Shown here: positions 3,576 through 61,262 of the stretch, one piece after another
Numbering within the stretch: position 1 is the stretch's first letter
Layout of the letters: every line of letters begins with the position of its first letter
Assembly (NCBI GenBank): GCA_013150915.1
Contig: JAADJE010000001.1
Coordinates: 30,575 to 94,574 of the forward strand
From: Gammaproteobacteria bacterium
Lineage (GTDB): Bacteria; Pseudomonadota; Gammaproteobacteria; BMS3Bbin11
Direction: 5' to 3'
Length of the DNA stretch: 64,000 bases
The notes under the pieces: model-generated
Databases searched by the model: none
What the model was told of the DNA's origin: nothing
Seen by the model: the letters and a program-made list of their open reading frames with translations, nothing else
Made by a program: the position numbers and the translations under genes

Positions 3576-4316
3576 CTAAACCTTGATATACACCCACCCC
3601 TGTTTCAGGCGAGTTATGATCTGCTCCAGCGCAGAGGGGGCTATTTCTGCTTCCGGGATCAGTTTCACCTTAATCCCCTTGTCTTCCAGTCGTTTGATAG
3701 CACGACTGCAGGCAAGAATTGAGAAATTATCATATTCTTTAGAAAGCCTTTTGATCCGATCCGCGTAAACAGTCTTATCCACCCTGATCAAATTCAGCCC
3801 CCCACCATTGGTGATAATTTCCAGTTCAAATGGGTACCCACCGGTAGCCGCAGCAAGCAGCAGGTCTTCAGCCGAGTCCAGGGCAGCAGTCAATCTGTCT
3901 GGTTCTGCAGAATCTACATGCAGTATAACTCTCTTCTCTTCTGCCTCTAGAGGCAGGCTGGCTATCACCTTGTCAGAGAGTAACTGCTGCTCGCCTCCCC
4001 GTACAAGGCTTACATCTATCCTGTCATGTGCAAACCAGCCAACAGCGGTGCCAACTGTCAGTAACAGTGTGGCAGCTACGGCCATGGCCGCGTACTGTTT
4101 GCCAAATTTCTGGCGCGATCTTACCTGTCTACTGGATGGTGGGACATTGTAAGCAAACCGTGTCAGTTCCTTTGTACTGCGTAATTCACAAAGCCGCTTC
4201 GCCAGTGCTGTATCAGCCTCCAGTGCAGCCATAATTTCACCACGTTCATCGCTATCCAGTTCATTGTCCAAATAGGCGTTCAAAAGCTCGTTTGATATGT
4301 CATTTGTATTTGTCAT
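3576..4316 (-). CDS. Putative membrane anti-sigma factor with a periplasmic DsrE-like (COG1416-type) C-terminal domain
   Basis: N-terminal anti-sigma-like segment (LNAYLDNELDSDERGEI), then a single TM (AAMAVAATLLLTVGTAVGWFA, ~res 75-96). Residues ~128-246 align with the DsrE-like protein at 5244-5702 (RVILHVD / ILACSRAI / GWVYIKV versus KIVLQIS / FAACKNTI / GYILIKP). ATGA start/stop overlap with the sigma gene. Confidence 0.7.
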   Translation of the reverse strand: MTNTNDISNELLNAYLDNELDSDERGEIMAALEADTALAKRLCELRSTKELTRFAYNVPPSSRQVRSRQKFGKQYAAMAVAATLLLTVGTAVGWFAHDRIDVSLVRGGEQQLLSDKVIASLPLEAEEKRVILHVDSAEPDRLTAALDSAEDLLLAAATGGYPFELEIITNGGGLNLIRVDKTVYADRIKRLSKEYDNFSILACSRAIKRLEDKGIKVKLIPEAEIAPSALEQIITRLKQGWVYIKV

Positions 4317-7138: not shown

Positions 7139-7214
7139 ATTTGCTTTGGCATTACGTTTTAAGATTTATGTGTTTCGTAAACATGAAATCCAAAAAGATA
7201 TCTCTCGCAGGGGG

Positions 7215-7294
7215 CGCAGAGAACGCAGGGAGGTCAAAATCTTTATTTTTTGTACAGCAGCGTTGATCCTTTTGGGTTCCCTGCGTTCTCTGCG
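7215..7294. repeat. Perfect 17-bp inverted repeat (REP-like) between convergent genes
   Basis: CGCAGAGAACGCAGGGA (7215-7231) and TCCCTGCGTTCTCTGCG (7278-7294) with a 46-nt loop. A related half-site TTCTCTGCGAACCTCTGCGCCCCTG is at ~3092-3118. Confidence 0.6.
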
Positions 7295-7339
7295 GACTCT
7301 GCAAGAGAAGGGTGTTTCTGTTGAACGTAAAACTTTCTT

Positions 7340-8445: not shown

Positions 8446-8591
8446 CTCGAATGACTCACAAACAGGTCAGATTGAGGTTCAAATCATGACATATCAAGGC
8501 TCGGATCGCACGTGAGCGAACCTTTGCGAAGGTTCGAAACGAAGAGATAGCATAATTTGGACTCAAGGTGCATGACTGTAAATCATTCGAG
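8446..8591. mobile_element. Divergent MITE-like element related to the 23652/61053 family
   Basis: Termini CTCGAATGA...TCATTCGAG (9-bp inverted). The internal core CGCACGTGAGCGAACCTTTGCGAAGGTTCGAAACGAAG aligns with CGCACGTAATAGCTGGCTATTGCGAAGGTTTCCAACGAAA of copy A. Confidence 0.45.
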
Positions 8592-22235: not shown

Positions 22236-22856
22236 TTAACGTGTTAGGTAAGAAGTGAGATCTCGTAAACTGCCTGCGACAGAGCCATCAATGACCGTGT
22301 CACCGGCGCGAATAATCACACCACCAATAATGGATGGATCGACAGATGCCTTGATATTGACATTGCGATCGAGTTCTTTTTTTAACATTTTTGCCAACTT
22401 GCTGATCTGCGCCTCGTCCAAAACGAATGCAGACACCACGCTGGCATCTACCGTACCTTCGGCATTGGCCCACAACGCATTAAACAGGGCCGCAATTTCT
22501 GGTAACAACTGCAACTTGCCATTCTCGCGCAGCATGCTGATCAGTGCCCGCTCCTGGTCACTAATATCTTCCAGTAGCGAAGCCAGTAATACATCGATTT
22601 GTTCACCTGTTACGCTCGGATCACCGAGCACAAATGCCAGGTTTTTATCGGCTACCGCTACCGCAAAATAGCTCAGCATATCACCCCAGCGCTGTAGCGA
22701 TGAAGCCTCGCTGGCCAACCGAAACACGGCTTCAGCGTAGGGTCTTGCTAATGTCTTGCGTTCAGCCACTAGTGCTCCAGCACTTGCCAAGGGAATAACC
22801 ATTACCTTCGCACTGCGCCTTGCTGCGAAACACCGCAGGGACGCTGAACCCGTCAT
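22236..22856 (-). CDS. atpH: F0F1 ATP synthase subunit delta (start uncertain)
   Basis: The OSCP/delta sequence begins at [15 protein letters not shown]. An in-frame GTG at 22769 preceded by GGAG would give a canonical ~177-aa protein. ATG 22856 would add an atypical 29-aa extension. Confidence 0.88.
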
Positions 22857-22874
22857 TATCAGGTTGAAGGAACA

Positions 22875-23345
22875 CTAGAGCTGGCCAGCCAGATCGTCGA
22901 GTATCTCGGCATGCGCCTTCTCATCGACTTCTTTTTTCAGAATTATGCTGGCGCCTTCTACAGCCAGCCTGGCAACAGAAGTGCGCAGCTCTTCACGCGC
23001 ACGATTTATTTCCTGTTCTATCCCGGCCTGAGCACTGGCAAGTATCCTTGCCCGCTCTTCATTGGCCTGATCCTTCGCCTCATCAACAATACCGCCTGCA
23101 CGCTTGTTTGCCTGTGCCAGCAGTTCAGAAGCCTGATTTTTCGCTTCCTTTATCTTGGCCGTTGCATTCTTTTGGGCCAGTTCAAGATCTCCCTCAGCAC
23201 GTGTAGCCGCTGCCAGGCCATCTGCGATATTTTTCTGTCGCTCACGCAAAGCACCGATGATAGGCGGCCAGATGTATTTCTGGCAGAAGATAACGAACAA
23301 CGCAAAGGCAATAGCCTGCCCTAGTAATGTCGCATTAATGTTCAC
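22875..23345 (-). CDS. atpF: F0F1 ATP synthase subunit b
   Basis: 156 aa. N-terminal TM followed by a long charged helix. Confidence 0.95.
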
Positions 23346-23386: not shown

Positions 23387-23641
<255 letters not shown>

Positions 23642-23651
23642 TTAAATGTTA

Positions 23652-23826
23652 GGAACCTCTGATTAATTCTGGACGAAGTAGATTACGATCTAAAATATTC
23701 AGATTTGAGGCGGAAATCGCACGTAATAGCTGGCTATTGCGATAGCTGGCTATTGCGAAGGTTTCCAACGAAAAAGCTGGATATTTTAGGCATAAGATAC
23801 GAGTTCATGAATTAATCAGAGGTTCC
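23652..23826. mobile_element. MITE-like element, copy A (in the atpB-atpE spacer)
   Basis: Perfect inverted termini (A)GGAACCTCTGATTAATTC (23651-23669) and GAATTAATCAGAGGTTCC(T) (23809-23827). TTA on both flanks (23649-51 and 23827-29). Internal perfect 16-bp tandem duplication TAGCTGGCTATTGCGA (23727-42 and 23743-58). No ORF. Confidence 0.75.
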
Positions 23827-23843
23827 TTAGGTTATCGTACTAA

Positions 23844-24692
<849 letters not shown>

Positions 24693-35034: not shown

Positions 35035-35979
35035 TTAATACAAACTTTCCTCACCTTCCGGCCTTGATTTGAACCGCCGGTGTACCCAAAAATACTGTTC
35101 TGGCATTTCACGTATACCCTGCTCGATGGTCTCGTTCATACGTCGTGCATCTTCCACGGAATCATTGGTGGGAAAATTATCAAGTGGCGGCAAAAATATC
35201 ACTTCGTAACCCCTGCCACTTGGCAGCATTTTTGTGAAACACGGGATAACTACCGCCTTGCTTATACGGGCAAAACGAGAAAACCCCGGTGTTACCGCTG
35301 TCTGAATACCAAAAAATGGTGCGAAAATTTTATCACCGGAACCCGGATCCTGATCCGGCAAATAATAAAACGGGCTACCTGCACGCATCATCTTGACCGC
35401 TTTGCGCATATCAGCCTTTCTTTCAACCATAATTCCACCAAAACGACCTCGCCCTCTCCGCACCAGAAAATCAATTAATGGGTTTCGAATCGTTTGATAC
35501 ATGCTGAACATTGGCCTGCCGTGTGAAAGTACTAAGCCTGCGATTTCCATTGCAACGAAATGCGGCGCCAGCAATATGACAGGTTTCCCACCGGCAATGG
35601 CCTGATCATAATAATGCCGGTCACGCATAGTCACCAGGCCCTGCAATCTACGTAGCGATGCAAACATATTGATGCCAAGGGTCAGTGATGCCTGACCCAG
35701 AACCTTGAAGTGCTCCTTTAATAATGCATCAATTTGAGTACTATCAAGCTCAGGAAAACACAGCTCAAGGTTGGTTCTGGCGATGTGCAGTCTCCGTTGC
35801 GTGACTCTATACAGAATAAGGCCCAGGCCTCTACCCAAATATGCAGTGAGGGGCAGGGGCAATAAACTGATGAGCCAAAGCAGCAGAATTCCGAGCCAAA
35901 CCAGCCAGTATCGCGGGTGTACAAACCGGAGGGCACCCCTATACGTTCCAGATAACTCAGATTGTGATTCAAAAGCCAT
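35035..35979 (-). CDS. Lipid A biosynthesis (Kdo)2-lipid IVA acyltransferase, LpxL/LpxM family
   Basis: 314 aa. N-terminal TM (YWLVWLGILLLWLISLLPL) and the late acyltransferase fold (HFVAMEI.. PDQD). Confidence 0.85.
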   Translation of the reverse strand: MAFESQSELSGTYRGALRFVHPRYWLVWLGILLLWLISLLPLPLTAYLGRGLGLILYRVTQRRLHIARTNLELCFPELDSTQIDALLKEHFKVLGQASLTLGINMFASLRRLQGLVTMRDRHYYDQAIAGGKPVILLAPHFVAMEIAGLVLSHGRPMFSMYQTIRNPLIDFLVRRGRGRFGGIMVERKADMRKAVKMMRAGSPFYYLPDQDPGSGDKIFAPFFGIQTAVTPGFSRFARISKAVVIPCFTKMLPSGRGYEVIFLPPLDNFPTNDSVEDARRMNETIEQGIREMPEQYFWVHRRFKSRPEGEESLY

Positions 35980-35995
35980 TATATAAAGGCAAGCA

Positions 35996-36089
35996 TCGTA
36001 CGTATTAGCTCTCTATTGCGAAGAGCCTTAATGCAAAGGTCGCCGATTTTGGATTCAAGATGATTATTCATGAATTATTAGAGCCACCC
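35996..36089. mobile_element. Truncated, degenerate right half of the MITE-like family (copy C)
   Basis: TCGTACGTATTAGCTCTCTATTGCGAAG...ATTTTGGATTCAAGATGATTATTCATGAATTATTAGAGCCACCC aligns with the right half of copy A. It is followed by TTA (36090-92). Confidence 0.5.
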
Positions 36090-39824: not shown

Positions 39825-39871
39825 TTAGATCGGTTTTCTGTGTTCGGTGTTAAGTAAAATCAACACCCGAA

Positions 39872-39909
39872 ACTGAACACTGAACACTGAACACTGAACA
39901 CTGAACACT
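39872..39909. repeat. Tandem heptamer array (ACTGAAC)x5 plus a partial unit
   Basis: Five perfect head-to-tail ACTGAAC units at 39872-39906, followed by ACT. The array lies 22 nt upstream of the ubiA ATG. Confidence 0.9.
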
Positions 39910-39930
39910 TATAAATTATATAATCCCCCC

Positions 39931-40794
39931 ATGCCCGATTTCCAGAACAAACTCAAACAATATCTATTACTCATGCGCGCCGACCGCCCCATTGGCAGTT
40001 TCCTGCTGCTGTGGCCGACGTTGTGGGCACTGTGGCTGGCTGGTGAAGGTCAGCCGTCAGCATCGATAGTGCTGATATTTATTGCCGGGGTCTTTGTTAT
40101 GCGCTCTGCGGGTTGCGTGATCAATGATTTTGCCGACCGGCATATTGATCCGGAGGTAGCACGAACCCGTAATCGCCCTATCGCTACCGGACTGGTTCGA
40201 CCACGTGAAGCGCTACTTTTATTCCTTGTATTGTGTGGGATTGCGCTATTACTGGTTCTGCAACTCAACACATTGACGATAAAACTCTCTGTGCTTGCTG
40301 TCATTCTGGCCGCCAGCTACCCCTTCGTAAAACGTTTTACCAACCTGCCGCAAGTCTATCTGGGCATTACCTTCGGCTGGAGCATCCCGATGGCCTTTGC
40401 TGCACAAAGTGGGCAGCTGCCTGCTGCTGTCTGGATACTGTTTACCGCCAATATCTGCTGGACGGTTGCCTATGACACGATGTATGCCATGGTCGACCGC
40501 GAGGATGATTTAAAGGTTGGCGTCATGTCTACGGCGATTCTGTTCGGAAACAATGACCGGTTTATCATTGGCCTACTGCAATTAATAACCATTGTTCTGC
40601 TTGCCTGGGTGGGTGTGATATCCGAACGTGGCAGTATCTACTACTTTGGTCTGCTGCTGGCATCCACATTCTTTTATTATCAACAATGGTTAATCGTACA
40701 ACGTGACCCGACACGATGCCTACAGGCTTTCCTGAACAACAACTGGTTCGGGGCCGTGGTTTTTGTGGGGCTAGCCCTGGATTATTTGCCTTGA
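39931..40794 (+). CDS. ubiA: 4-hydroxybenzoate polyprenyltransferase
   Basis: RADRPIGSFLLLWPT.., NDFADRHIDP Asp-rich motif, YDTMYAMVDREDD second motif. Confidence 0.95.
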   Translation: MPDFQNKLKQYLLLMRADRPIGSFLLLWPTLWALWLAGEGQPSASIVLIFIAGVFVMRSAGCVINDFADRHIDPEVARTRNRPIATGLVRPREALLLFLVLCGIALLLVLQLNTLTIKLSVLAVILAASYPFVKRFTNLPQVYLGITFGWSIPMAFAAQSGQLPAAVWILFTANICWTVAYDTMYAMVDREDDLKVGVMSTAILFGNNDRFIIGLLQLITIVLLAWVGVISERGSIYYFGLLLASTFFYYQQWLIVQRDPTRCLQAFLNNNWFGAVVFVGLALDYLP

Positions 40795-40803
40795 AAAGAA
40801 ACC

Positions 40804-40877
40804 AGTTTTCAGTGTTCAGTTTCAGGTTTTCAGTAAAGACCTGTATTTTGAACACAGAAAACTGAACACTGAAAACT
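40804..40877. repeat. Perfect 19-bp inverted repeat of the TGAACAC REP family
   Basis: AGTTTTCAGTGTTCAGTTT (40804-22) and AAACTGAACACTGAAAACT (40859-77) with a nested inner stem CAGGT/ACCTG. It lies immediately after the ubiA stop. Confidence 0.85.
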
Positions 40878-40966
40878 TTTTCTACCTTTTTACATTCCCC
40901 AAAGAGTGCATTACTATCCCCTGACACACAGATTAATAAATGTGGAAAAAAGGAGGCTGGGGTCGC

Positions 40967-60443: not shown

Positions 60444-60445
60444 AT

Positions 60446-60605
60446 GGACCCTCTGATCAATAATGCCATGCTTCTACGAGACCTGCAGGCTGATTTACAC
60501 TCTGCGTTGTCACTTTTCACCCGGCCCAGGCATGCCTTCAAAGTTCTGCCTTGATTGTTAATCAGCCAGTATGCCAGAGGTATGGCATTATTAATCAGGG
60601 GTTCC
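60446..60605. mobile_element. MITE-like element, copy D (fills the accB-accC spacer)
   Basis: 24-bp inverted termini GGACCCTCTGATCAATAATGCCAT (60446-69) and ATGGCATTATTAATCAGGGGTTCC (60582-605). They share the GGAMCCYCTGATYAAT end with copies A and B, but the interior is different. Confidence 0.65.
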
Positions 60606-60610
60606 ATTCC

Positions 60611-61052: not shown

Positions 61053-61262
61053 GGGACCCCTGATTTATTCTGGACGAAGTAGATTGCGGTATAAAATCTT
61101 CGGATTTAGGGCGCAAGCCGTACGACCACTCAACAACATCCTGTCATCACAGCACGTGCACATCCATGTACGTCGTAATAGCGGGCTATTGCGAAGGTTT
61201 GGAACAAAGAAGCTGGATATTTTAGGGTTAAGATATGAGTTCATGAATAGATCAGGGGCTCC
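61053..61262. mobile_element. MITE-like element, copy B (fills the aroQ-accB spacer)
   Basis: Termini (A)GGGACCCCTGATTTATTC (61052-70) and GAATAGATCAGGGGCTCC(T) (61245-63). The interior is collinear with copy A (TGGACGAAGTAGATT.., ..CTATTGCGAAGGTTT..AGCTGGATATTTTAGG..GAGTTCATGAAT). TTA on both flanks (61050-52 and 61263-65). Confidence 0.75.

Follow-up and report, generated by a model that had tools for sequence, protein, structure and literature searches.

The genes atpB and atpE, which encode subunits a and c of ATP synthase, are separated by 220 nt in the gammaproteobacterial DNA considered here (a stretch of 64,000 nucleotides, hereafter the window), and the question raised by this locus is whether that spacer is filled by a piece of mobile DNA or by a sequence native to the operon. 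Both genes lie on the minus strand, atpB at 23844-24671 (its orthologues match Pfam ATP-synt_A) and atpE at 23387-23623. With high confidence, we take the sequence between them to be a non-autonomous MITE of a 159-161-bp family, with the terminal inverted repeats of an IS of about 1.18 kb from the IS5 family (IS5 group).

An earlier note on this DNA had described a spacer of ~220 nt holding a non-coding element of 175-177 bp, and this description holds. The MITE body is 175 bp long (23652-23826, plus strand; profile match at E=1e-40, with the BLAST alignments of relatives breaking between 23647 and 23830) and takes up most of the spacer. The perfect 19-bp inverted ends it reported are real as well: the arms at 23651-23669 and 23809-23827, 19 nt each with 139 nt between them, are 100% complementary. 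The left terminal inverted repeat, GGAACCTCTGATTAATTC (23652-23669, plus strand), is identical to the right end of two IS elements described below (L116 and L096), and the right terminal inverted repeat (23809-23826, minus strand) is its exact complement. This 18-mer end has four matches in the window at no more than three mismatches, against 0.09 expected by chance. The letters TTA adjoin the element on both sides (23649-23651 and 23827-23829), the four-base flanks being GTTA on the left (23648-23651) and TTAG on the right (23827-23830). The MITE is an imperfect palindrome whose plus and minus strands align with each other at about 66-70%, and two exact tandem units of ATAGCTGGCTATTGCG stand at the hairpin apex (23726-23741 and 23742-23757, plus strand, by sequence comparison); without this internal duplication the element measures 159 bp, the canonical length of its family.

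Searches for coding or signal content within the element were negative. Neither the ORF list nor tblastn gave an ORF or transposase similarity in the MITE, and tblastn likewise agreed with the earlier observation that the window as a whole has no transposase. An Rfam scan of the element yielded a single, chance match to a microRNA (E=0.62; 18.6 bits, where the gathering score is 100), and a signal scan found no promoter-like or terminator-like sites in it. In the mRNA sense, the stop codon of atpB lies 17 nt upstream of the MITE. The native atpE leader (23624-23647, minus strand; CATTTAACTCATAGAGAGAAATACA in the mRNA sense, followed by ATG) is intact downstream of the insertion, and its block AACTCATAGAGAGAAATACA (AACTCATAAGAGAGAAATACA in three relatives), which makes up the last ~20 nt ahead of the start, is conserved in all ten of the relatives to which we now turn.

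An exact look-up of the AtpB protein gave no match on record; the corresponding look-up with AtpE led to ten contigs in assemblies other than this one, and the gene order is shared by all of them. These ten relatives (83-91% nucleotide identity, identical AtpE) have an atpB-atpE spacer of 41-44 nt without the element, and their alignments to the window end at 23647 and restart at 23830-23838, thus bracketing it. Over 4.7 kb, the metagenome contig L139 matches the window at 96.8-97.9% identity, and it carries the element at identical junctions (ATGTTA/GGAACC...GGTTCC/TTAGGTT), in a form of 159 bp without the tandem duplication. The element occupies the variable part of the spacer, just upstream of the conserved atpE leader. 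Because ten orthologous spacers are empty, the atpB-atpE element is an insertion and not an ancestral regulatory region. The earlier note had claimed an insertion and proposed the comparison with empty sites, which gave ten empty spacers and a filled one in L139; the same sequence in orthologous spacers, which it had named as the sign of an ancestral region, was found in none of the ten. Since L139 is filled and the relatives at no more than 91% identity are empty, the insertion is younger than the split from the latter and older than the split from L139. The relatives have CATAATTC where the window lineage would have had CTAACATT, a pre-insertion sequence reconstructed from relatives that are at most 91% identical.

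The E. coli atpB-atpE spacer carries translational signals for atpE, and one could therefore regard the present sequence as an ancestral atp regulatory region (an attenuator or a translational enhancer) that merely looks like a transposon. This reading has next to no chance of being right: besides being missing from ten orthologous spacers, the element is bounded by IS5-type ends and target duplications, and the same ends recur, with different flanks, at no fewer than 120 stretches in each of two sequence collections.

Misplacement of a high-copy repeat between atpB and atpE during assembly of this MAG contig is barely credible too. The repeat does have a very high copy number in metagenomes, Logan contigs do break at the element, and its 16-nt duplication is without independent support. 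Nevertheless, the flanks are syntenic atpB and atpE, the independent assembly L139 has the same junctions, and contigs of runs X2-X4 run from both unique flanks into the terminal repeats.

The duplication has to be judged separately from the insertion. As the earlier note pointed out, the 16-bp tandem repeat is perfect, and it is exact in the window (23726-23757), but L139, the run contigs and the run index offer no independent support for it. Neither L139 nor any of the 92 other family copies among the matches listed has it; the Logan contigs of the four best-matching runs stop at 23742, without crossing the duplication junction, although contigs of this kind cannot prove absence; and words spanning that junction have no match in the run index. 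As it is missing from L139, the duplication either arose after the split from L139 or is not real, and by sequence comparison it belongs to this assembly's strain alone or is an artefact of assembly. Its predicted effect on the fold is a longer apex stem, with an apex helix of 16 pairs on the plus strand.

The element had also been reported to recur within the window, and matches in genomes and metagenomes, together with an excess of depth, leave it clearly multi-copy. An nhmmer profile of 72 family copies from other organisms recovered a second full copy with an internal insert of about 36 nt, which fills the aroQ-accB spacer (61053-61262, plus strand; two pieces at E=2e-17 and 1e-10), and two degraded copies with their termini lost, at 35954-36080 (plus strand; profile positions 24-152, E=8e-13) and 8466-8573 (plus strand; profile positions 26-136, E=1e-9). 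The 64-kb window thus has four same-family copies, all on the plus strand, with neighbouring genes on the minus strand. Three of the four additional members proposed earlier are therefore recovered by the profile; the remaining one, given as 60446-60605, agrees only at its ends (E=0.04). This element, at about 60444-60607, fills the accB-accC spacer, belongs to a different subfamily (32-nt inverted repeat, 84%) and has only terminal repeats in common with the atp MITE family. Two other repeats in the window are unrelated to the MITE family: inverted arrays of the heptamer ACTGAAC/TGAACAC at 39862-39914 and 40803-40878, which flank a gene at 39931-40794, and an inverted repeat at 7201-7308, whose arms of 39 nt are 82% complementary and stand 30 nt from each other.

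Outside the window, four hydrothermal-vent metagenomes that contain the flanks show a summed contig depth over 23640-23843 that exceeds the depth of the flanks by a factor of roughly 10 to more than 150, and in them dozens of contigs exit the element at 23651 and 23829 into differing sequences. A scan with the 18-mer end over one genome per prokaryotic species gave at least 120 stretches, and those listed are mostly from Gammaproteobacteria MAGs. Among these matches, the MAG groups include Woeseiaceae, Sedimenticolaceae, Thiohalobacterales, Ectothiorhodospiraceae and Acidiferrobacteraceae, and the cultured hosts include Microbulbifer thermotolerans DSM 19189, Thiohalobacter thiocyanaticus and Natronospira elongata. 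A metagenome scan with a family-specific 21-mer end likewise gave at least 120 stretches, from which 92 non-redundant family copies were obtained. Among the matches listed, paired ends fall into size classes of about 50, 99, 110, 130, 141-142, 159-161, 205 and 212-213 bp, and the window copy without its duplication shares up to 85% identity with copies in the 159-161-bp class. Literature searched for the end GGAACCTCTGATTAATTC and for the interior of the 159-bp hairpin returned irrelevant primer matches only. Apparently, this is a large family of marine sediment and vent gammaproteobacteria, conventional in kind and undescribed.

Several observations concern the wider group that shares the 18-bp end. 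M. thermotolerans DSM 19189 has about ten loci with it (L011, L034, L046, L049, L067, L082, L089, L119), mostly of the 212-213-bp class and with clean TTAA, CTAG or CTAA duplications; as a cultured strain with at least ten copies of a related class, it is a practical test organism for the superfamily. The end also occurs, with clean duplications, outside Gammaproteobacteria, in a Nitrospiraceae MAG (L096), a Rhodothermales MAG (L061/L080) and Deltaproteobacteria MAGs (L024/L044/L050/L084/L093/L099/L104/L130), which suggests that the IS/MITE superfamily has spread horizontally, or that some of the contigs were mis-binned. Mini-forms, in which two terminal repeats are joined by 2-30 other letters into hairpins of about 48-58 bp, were found in vent runs X1-X3 over window positions 23669-23808 and at loci L072, L035, L064 and L015; these are collapsed MITE derivatives.

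The earlier note read the flanking TTA as a 3-bp duplication of the TNA type known from Harbinger elements, and the family does not bear this out. Among the matches listed, identical 4-bp flanks are present in 46 of 77 complete elements of all size classes, with a spectrum of TTAA (12), CTAG (10), CTAA (8), TTAG (4) and a few TA-centred variants, so that YTAR accounts for 34 of the 46. In the 159-bp family, again among the matches listed, 49 of 88 copies have identical 4-bp flanks, 43 of the 49 being YTAR, and a further 26 copies differ at one flank base. When left and right flanks of the 88 copies were paired at random, identical pairs averaged 14 and never exceeded 26. The published signature of IS5, drawn from 220 reconstructed IS5 insertions, is a YTAR target with a 4-bp duplication (PMC5009759). 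At the level of the family, the duplicated target has 4 bp and follows the YTAR motif of IS5.

The window copy is the exception, being alone among the 77 listed elements in fitting a 3-bp but not a 4-bp duplication; its flanks, GTTA and TTAG, do not form a clean 4-bp duplication, which is a point against the preferred reading. An assembly slip is not the cause, since L139 has the same junction. From the letters at the junctions, the copy reads best as TTAG/(G)GAACC...GGTTCC/TTAG, with one G probably lost from a GGG run, and the right-hand TTAG would then be the target-site duplication expected from the family-wide YTAR spectrum; the alternative is a true 3-bp TTA stagger.

Two features of the insertion sites bear on neighbouring genes. 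In 13 of the 92 listed copies (L033, L090, L121, L133, L147, L163, L180, L183, L186, L210, L217, L224 and L237), the stop codon of a flanking ORF (TAA or TAG) forms the last three bases of the YTAR target, and since insertion there duplicates the stop, the flanking ORF is left intact. The outward-facing end of the MITE carries GAGG about 8 nt before the flank, and in the aroQ-accB and accB-accC spacer copies this GAGG stands at Shine-Dalgarno distance from the start codons of accB and accC.

We found the autonomous partner with the same termini that the earlier note had suggested looking for, in the genomes of other organisms. Among the matches listed, two end pairs stand 1.18 kb apart and delimit full IS elements, one of 1178 bp in the Nitrospiraceae MAG contig L096 (5763-6940, with CTAG at both flanks) and one of 1186 bp in the gammaproteobacterial MAG contig L116 (3-1188, with TTAG on the right and a left flank, ..AG, cut by the contig end). 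Each has the exact 18-mer at one end and two or three mismatches to it at the other, and each has a single gene, which matches NF033581 (IS5 family transposase) at 336 bits in L096 and 362 bits in L116, against a cut-off of 140 bits. The two transposases also match Pfam DDE_Tnp_1 (E=1e-34) and DUF772 and are about 60% identical to plasmid-annotated IS5-family transposases. A third, partial IS in L081 lies directly inside an exact 18-mer end. The similarity between IS and MITE is restricted to the terminal ~18 nt. In 1.65 Mb of repeat-rich loci there were the two full IS elements and the partial copy in L081 and no others, and a comparison of the vent metagenome runs with the L116 IS returned only distant (<90%) IS5-like transposase pieces, which do not establish a partner in the source community. 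With these transposases and the YTAR duplication, the IS5 assignment made in the earlier note is well founded.

Following the definition of bacterial MITEs in PMC3184786, with a size bound of less than about 400 bp, the atp element qualifies by its 175 bp, the absence of a transposase gene, its terminal inverted repeats, its dispersed copies, its filled and empty sites and the ends it shares with an IS. A flanking duplication, which also belongs to the definition, is present at the level of the family (49 of 88 copies among the matches listed), and the window copy has TTA/TTA or TTAG minus one G.

A palindromic repeat of the REP/REPIN or ERIC type, mobilized by a RAYT or an unknown mechanism in place of an IS5 transposase, would share several of these features, namely a long imperfect intergenic palindrome whose hairpin is kept by covariation (see below) and a number of MITEs far above that of IS copies (two full IS in the 1.65 Mb). 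We nonetheless consider such an origin very unlikely, given that variable 4-bp YTAR duplications flank the copies, that the termini are identical to IS5-family ends, and that the short GC-rich stem-loop form of REPs is absent.

A different MITE was found at the atpF-atpH junction. Its relic in the window, internally deleted to 102 nt (22773-22874, minus strand), is flanked by CTAG at 22875-22878, which holds the atpF stop codon, and by CTAG at 22769-22772, the G of which starts the atpH GTG. The ends of this second MITE are TGTTCCTTCAACCTGATAATGACGGGTTCAG, with a CTAG duplication. It is of full length (~250 nt) in L139 (3405-3554 region) and reduced in L004 (~3745-3770) to a 10-nt footprint, CTAG TGAAGGTGCA CTAG; the relatives L001 and L007 have an overlapping TAATG atpF-atpH junction. 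The start of atpH is the GTG at 22769, and the 206-aa ORF call at 22236-22856 is over-extended through the relic.

We further generated predicted RNA secondary structures for both strands of the atpB-atpE spacer. The mRNA-sense (minus) strand is predicted to fold into one long hairpin (-67.4 kcal/mol, z=-6.4), in which the imperfect hairpin of the element itself is put at about -63 to -67 kcal/mol and has a perfect basal stem of 19 bp, and in which the atpE leader is largely unpaired. The plus strand is predicted to fold at -92.7 kcal/mol (z=-10). A hairpin had been proposed earlier for the conserved core of the element, and the predicted fold does contain it, but the hairpin runs the full length of the element and the core accounts for no more than its apex. 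Of the two strands, it is the plus strand of the window that folds better (A-sense), and the atp mRNA therefore carries its complement.

This asymmetry extends to the family. Among the 92 listed copies, 90 have their better-folding strand in one and the same relative orientation, with a mean advantage of 19 kcal/mol, and the consensus fold of an alignment of 72 copies has an energy of -66 kcal/mol on one strand against -13.6 on the other. In this consensus fold, 58 pairs are 95.8% paired, a figure that drops to 31-46% once the partners are slid by one to three columns, and compensatory double changes occur in 34 pairs (556 cells), the slid controls having them in 18-26 pairs (53-100 cells). 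As the consensus fold was reduced to 13 pairs when G.U was forbidden, a strand-neutral self-alignment was used in its place. There, G.T cells outnumbered A.C cells by 406 to 226, and by 114 to 29 among mostly Watson-Crick pairs; shared ancestry inflates such cell counts, and counted by positions the wobble stands at 30 G.T to 21 A.C. C-to-T deamination of the sense or lagging-template strand was rejected as the source of the asymmetry, since by our reasoning it predicts the opposite wobble asymmetry. Selection is not required for compensatory changes in a DNA palindrome, since template switching within one molecule at quasi-palindromes can also produce them.

In co-directional contexts, with crude ORF calls for the 92 listed copies, the mRNA has the weaker-folding strand in 21 cases and the stronger in 10 (p=0.07), a trend whose direction argues against selection on mRNA structure. 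A 7:0 bias against co-directional genes among the first 15 copies shrank to this 21:10 with 92 copies.

A purely passive element does not account for the strong covariation of the family or for its strand asymmetry, and this is a counter-point to reading the MITE as a mere passenger. We tentatively raise, as a possibility with the odds clearly against it, that the 159-bp family is under strand-specific structural selection that goes beyond passive carriage by IS5. If so, a single-stranded form of one strand would matter for propagation of the element or for a function at the level of the host, candidate forms being a structured RNA or a single-stranded DNA hairpin in transposition or replication, and an IS5-type MITE would have a single-stranded step or an RNA role. 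A requirement for a single strand is not known from the IS5 cut-and-paste picture.

The folding results also bear on whether the atp copy has been domesticated, i.e., whether a former MITE now serves as an intercistronic RNA module that determines processing or stability, as an RNase III/E site or a protective hairpin, and uncouples the levels of atpB and atpE. The earlier note had raised a possible effect of this kind on the atp mRNA and on the balance of subunits a and c. The predicted mRNA hairpin with its strong z-score and perfect basal stem, the compensatory changes that keep the hairpin in the family, and the retention of the insertion in two strains (the window and L139) are in favor of this idea, as is the reported effect of ERIC and Correia MITEs on mRNA stability (PMC3184786). 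Against it, ten relatives manage without the element, the atp mRNA has the weaker-folding strand, and the trend across the listed family copies (21 to 10) goes the same way. Of the RNA runs, one shares words with the region, at a share of 0.12, and it comes from a different organism. We regard domestication as unlikely. In its effect on the host, the element is most likely a tolerated selfish passenger; at most, it may add a structure sensitive to RNase III or RNase E between atpB and atpE, of the kind reported for ERIC and Correia elements (PMC3184786).

The events at the locus may be pictured as follows. A DDE transposase of the IS5 type, acting in trans, would have recognized the ends and inserted the element at a YTAR target, duplicating these four bases. 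In this lineage, the landing site was the only variable stretch of the spacer, at a distance of 14-17 nt from the stop codon of atpB and 24-26 nt from the start codon of atpE. After insertion, one terminal G was presumably lost, unless the stagger had been 3 bp, and the hairpin apex has an apparent 16-nt duplication that is confined to the window assembly. The element is probably co-transcribed with the atp operon, and the mRNA would carry its hairpin in a way that spares the conserved ribosome-binding region of atpE.

The atp element is thus ordinary mobile DNA, recently inserted at an unusual place, an essential operon. The one unusual point is the predicted hairpin of its family, which is strand-specific and supported by covariation. 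For annotation, MITE insertions, as opposed to new regulatory RNAs, account for the long atpB-atpE, aroQ-accB and accB-accC spacers and for the atpF-atpH junction, and a MITE relic is the reason why the atpH ORF call is too long. An IS5-type 18-bp end is common to MITE classes of about 50 to 335 bp in several orders of sediment and vent Gammaproteobacteria, which amounts to a large natural collection for studying the tolerance of operons to insertions, the stop-codon targets and the outward-facing GAGG end being examples.

Among known systems, REP and REPIN sequences differ from the atp MITE in being short (20-40 bp), GC-rich, without target duplication and associated with RAYTs, whereas the atp MITE is a 159-bp hairpin with terminal inverted repeats and duplications. 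IS5 and PIF-Harbinger transposases belong to one wider DDE grouping, and the Tourist-like MITEs of PIF/Harbinger elements in eukaryotes resemble the atp MITE in their TA-centred target. In contrast to the 4 bp of the atp MITE family, however, Harbinger and Tourist elements duplicate 3 bp (TWA), and we rejected an assignment to that type because a fit to 3 bp only occurs in one of the 77 listed elements, the window copy.

Similar to the atp MITE, the ERIC (IRU) sequences of Enterobacteriaceae, imperfect palindromes of 127 bp, are long, intergenic, embedded in operons and co-transcribed, the last presumably being true here as well. ERIC has been reported to change the stability of upstream mRNA through an RNase E site (PMC3184786). 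It has TA flanks and no identified partner IS, unlike the 4-bp YTAR duplications and IS5 partner of the atp MITE, and there is no evident sequence relationship between the two, which are set apart here by their published descriptions. The Correia elements (NEMIS, CREE) of Neisseria are likewise MITEs of 100-160 bp with long terminal repeats and hairpins, located between or next to genes; they are co-transcribed and can supply expression signals (PMC3184786). In contrast to the atp MITE, which has no promoter-like site, they duplicate TA and carry IHF sites and promoters, and their host range and ends differ, again going by description.

Compared with IS5 itself (the InsH type of E. coli), the MITE family differs in that its resemblance to an IS ends after about 18 nt, and the window copy in that its duplication extends to three of four bases. 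Nevertheless, the terminal repeat of the atp MITE begins with GG, the partner IS is of about 1.18 kb with a single DDE transposase (NF033581; DDE_Tnp_1 and DUF772), and at the level of the family the target duplication is the 4-bp YTAR of IS5 (PMC5009759).
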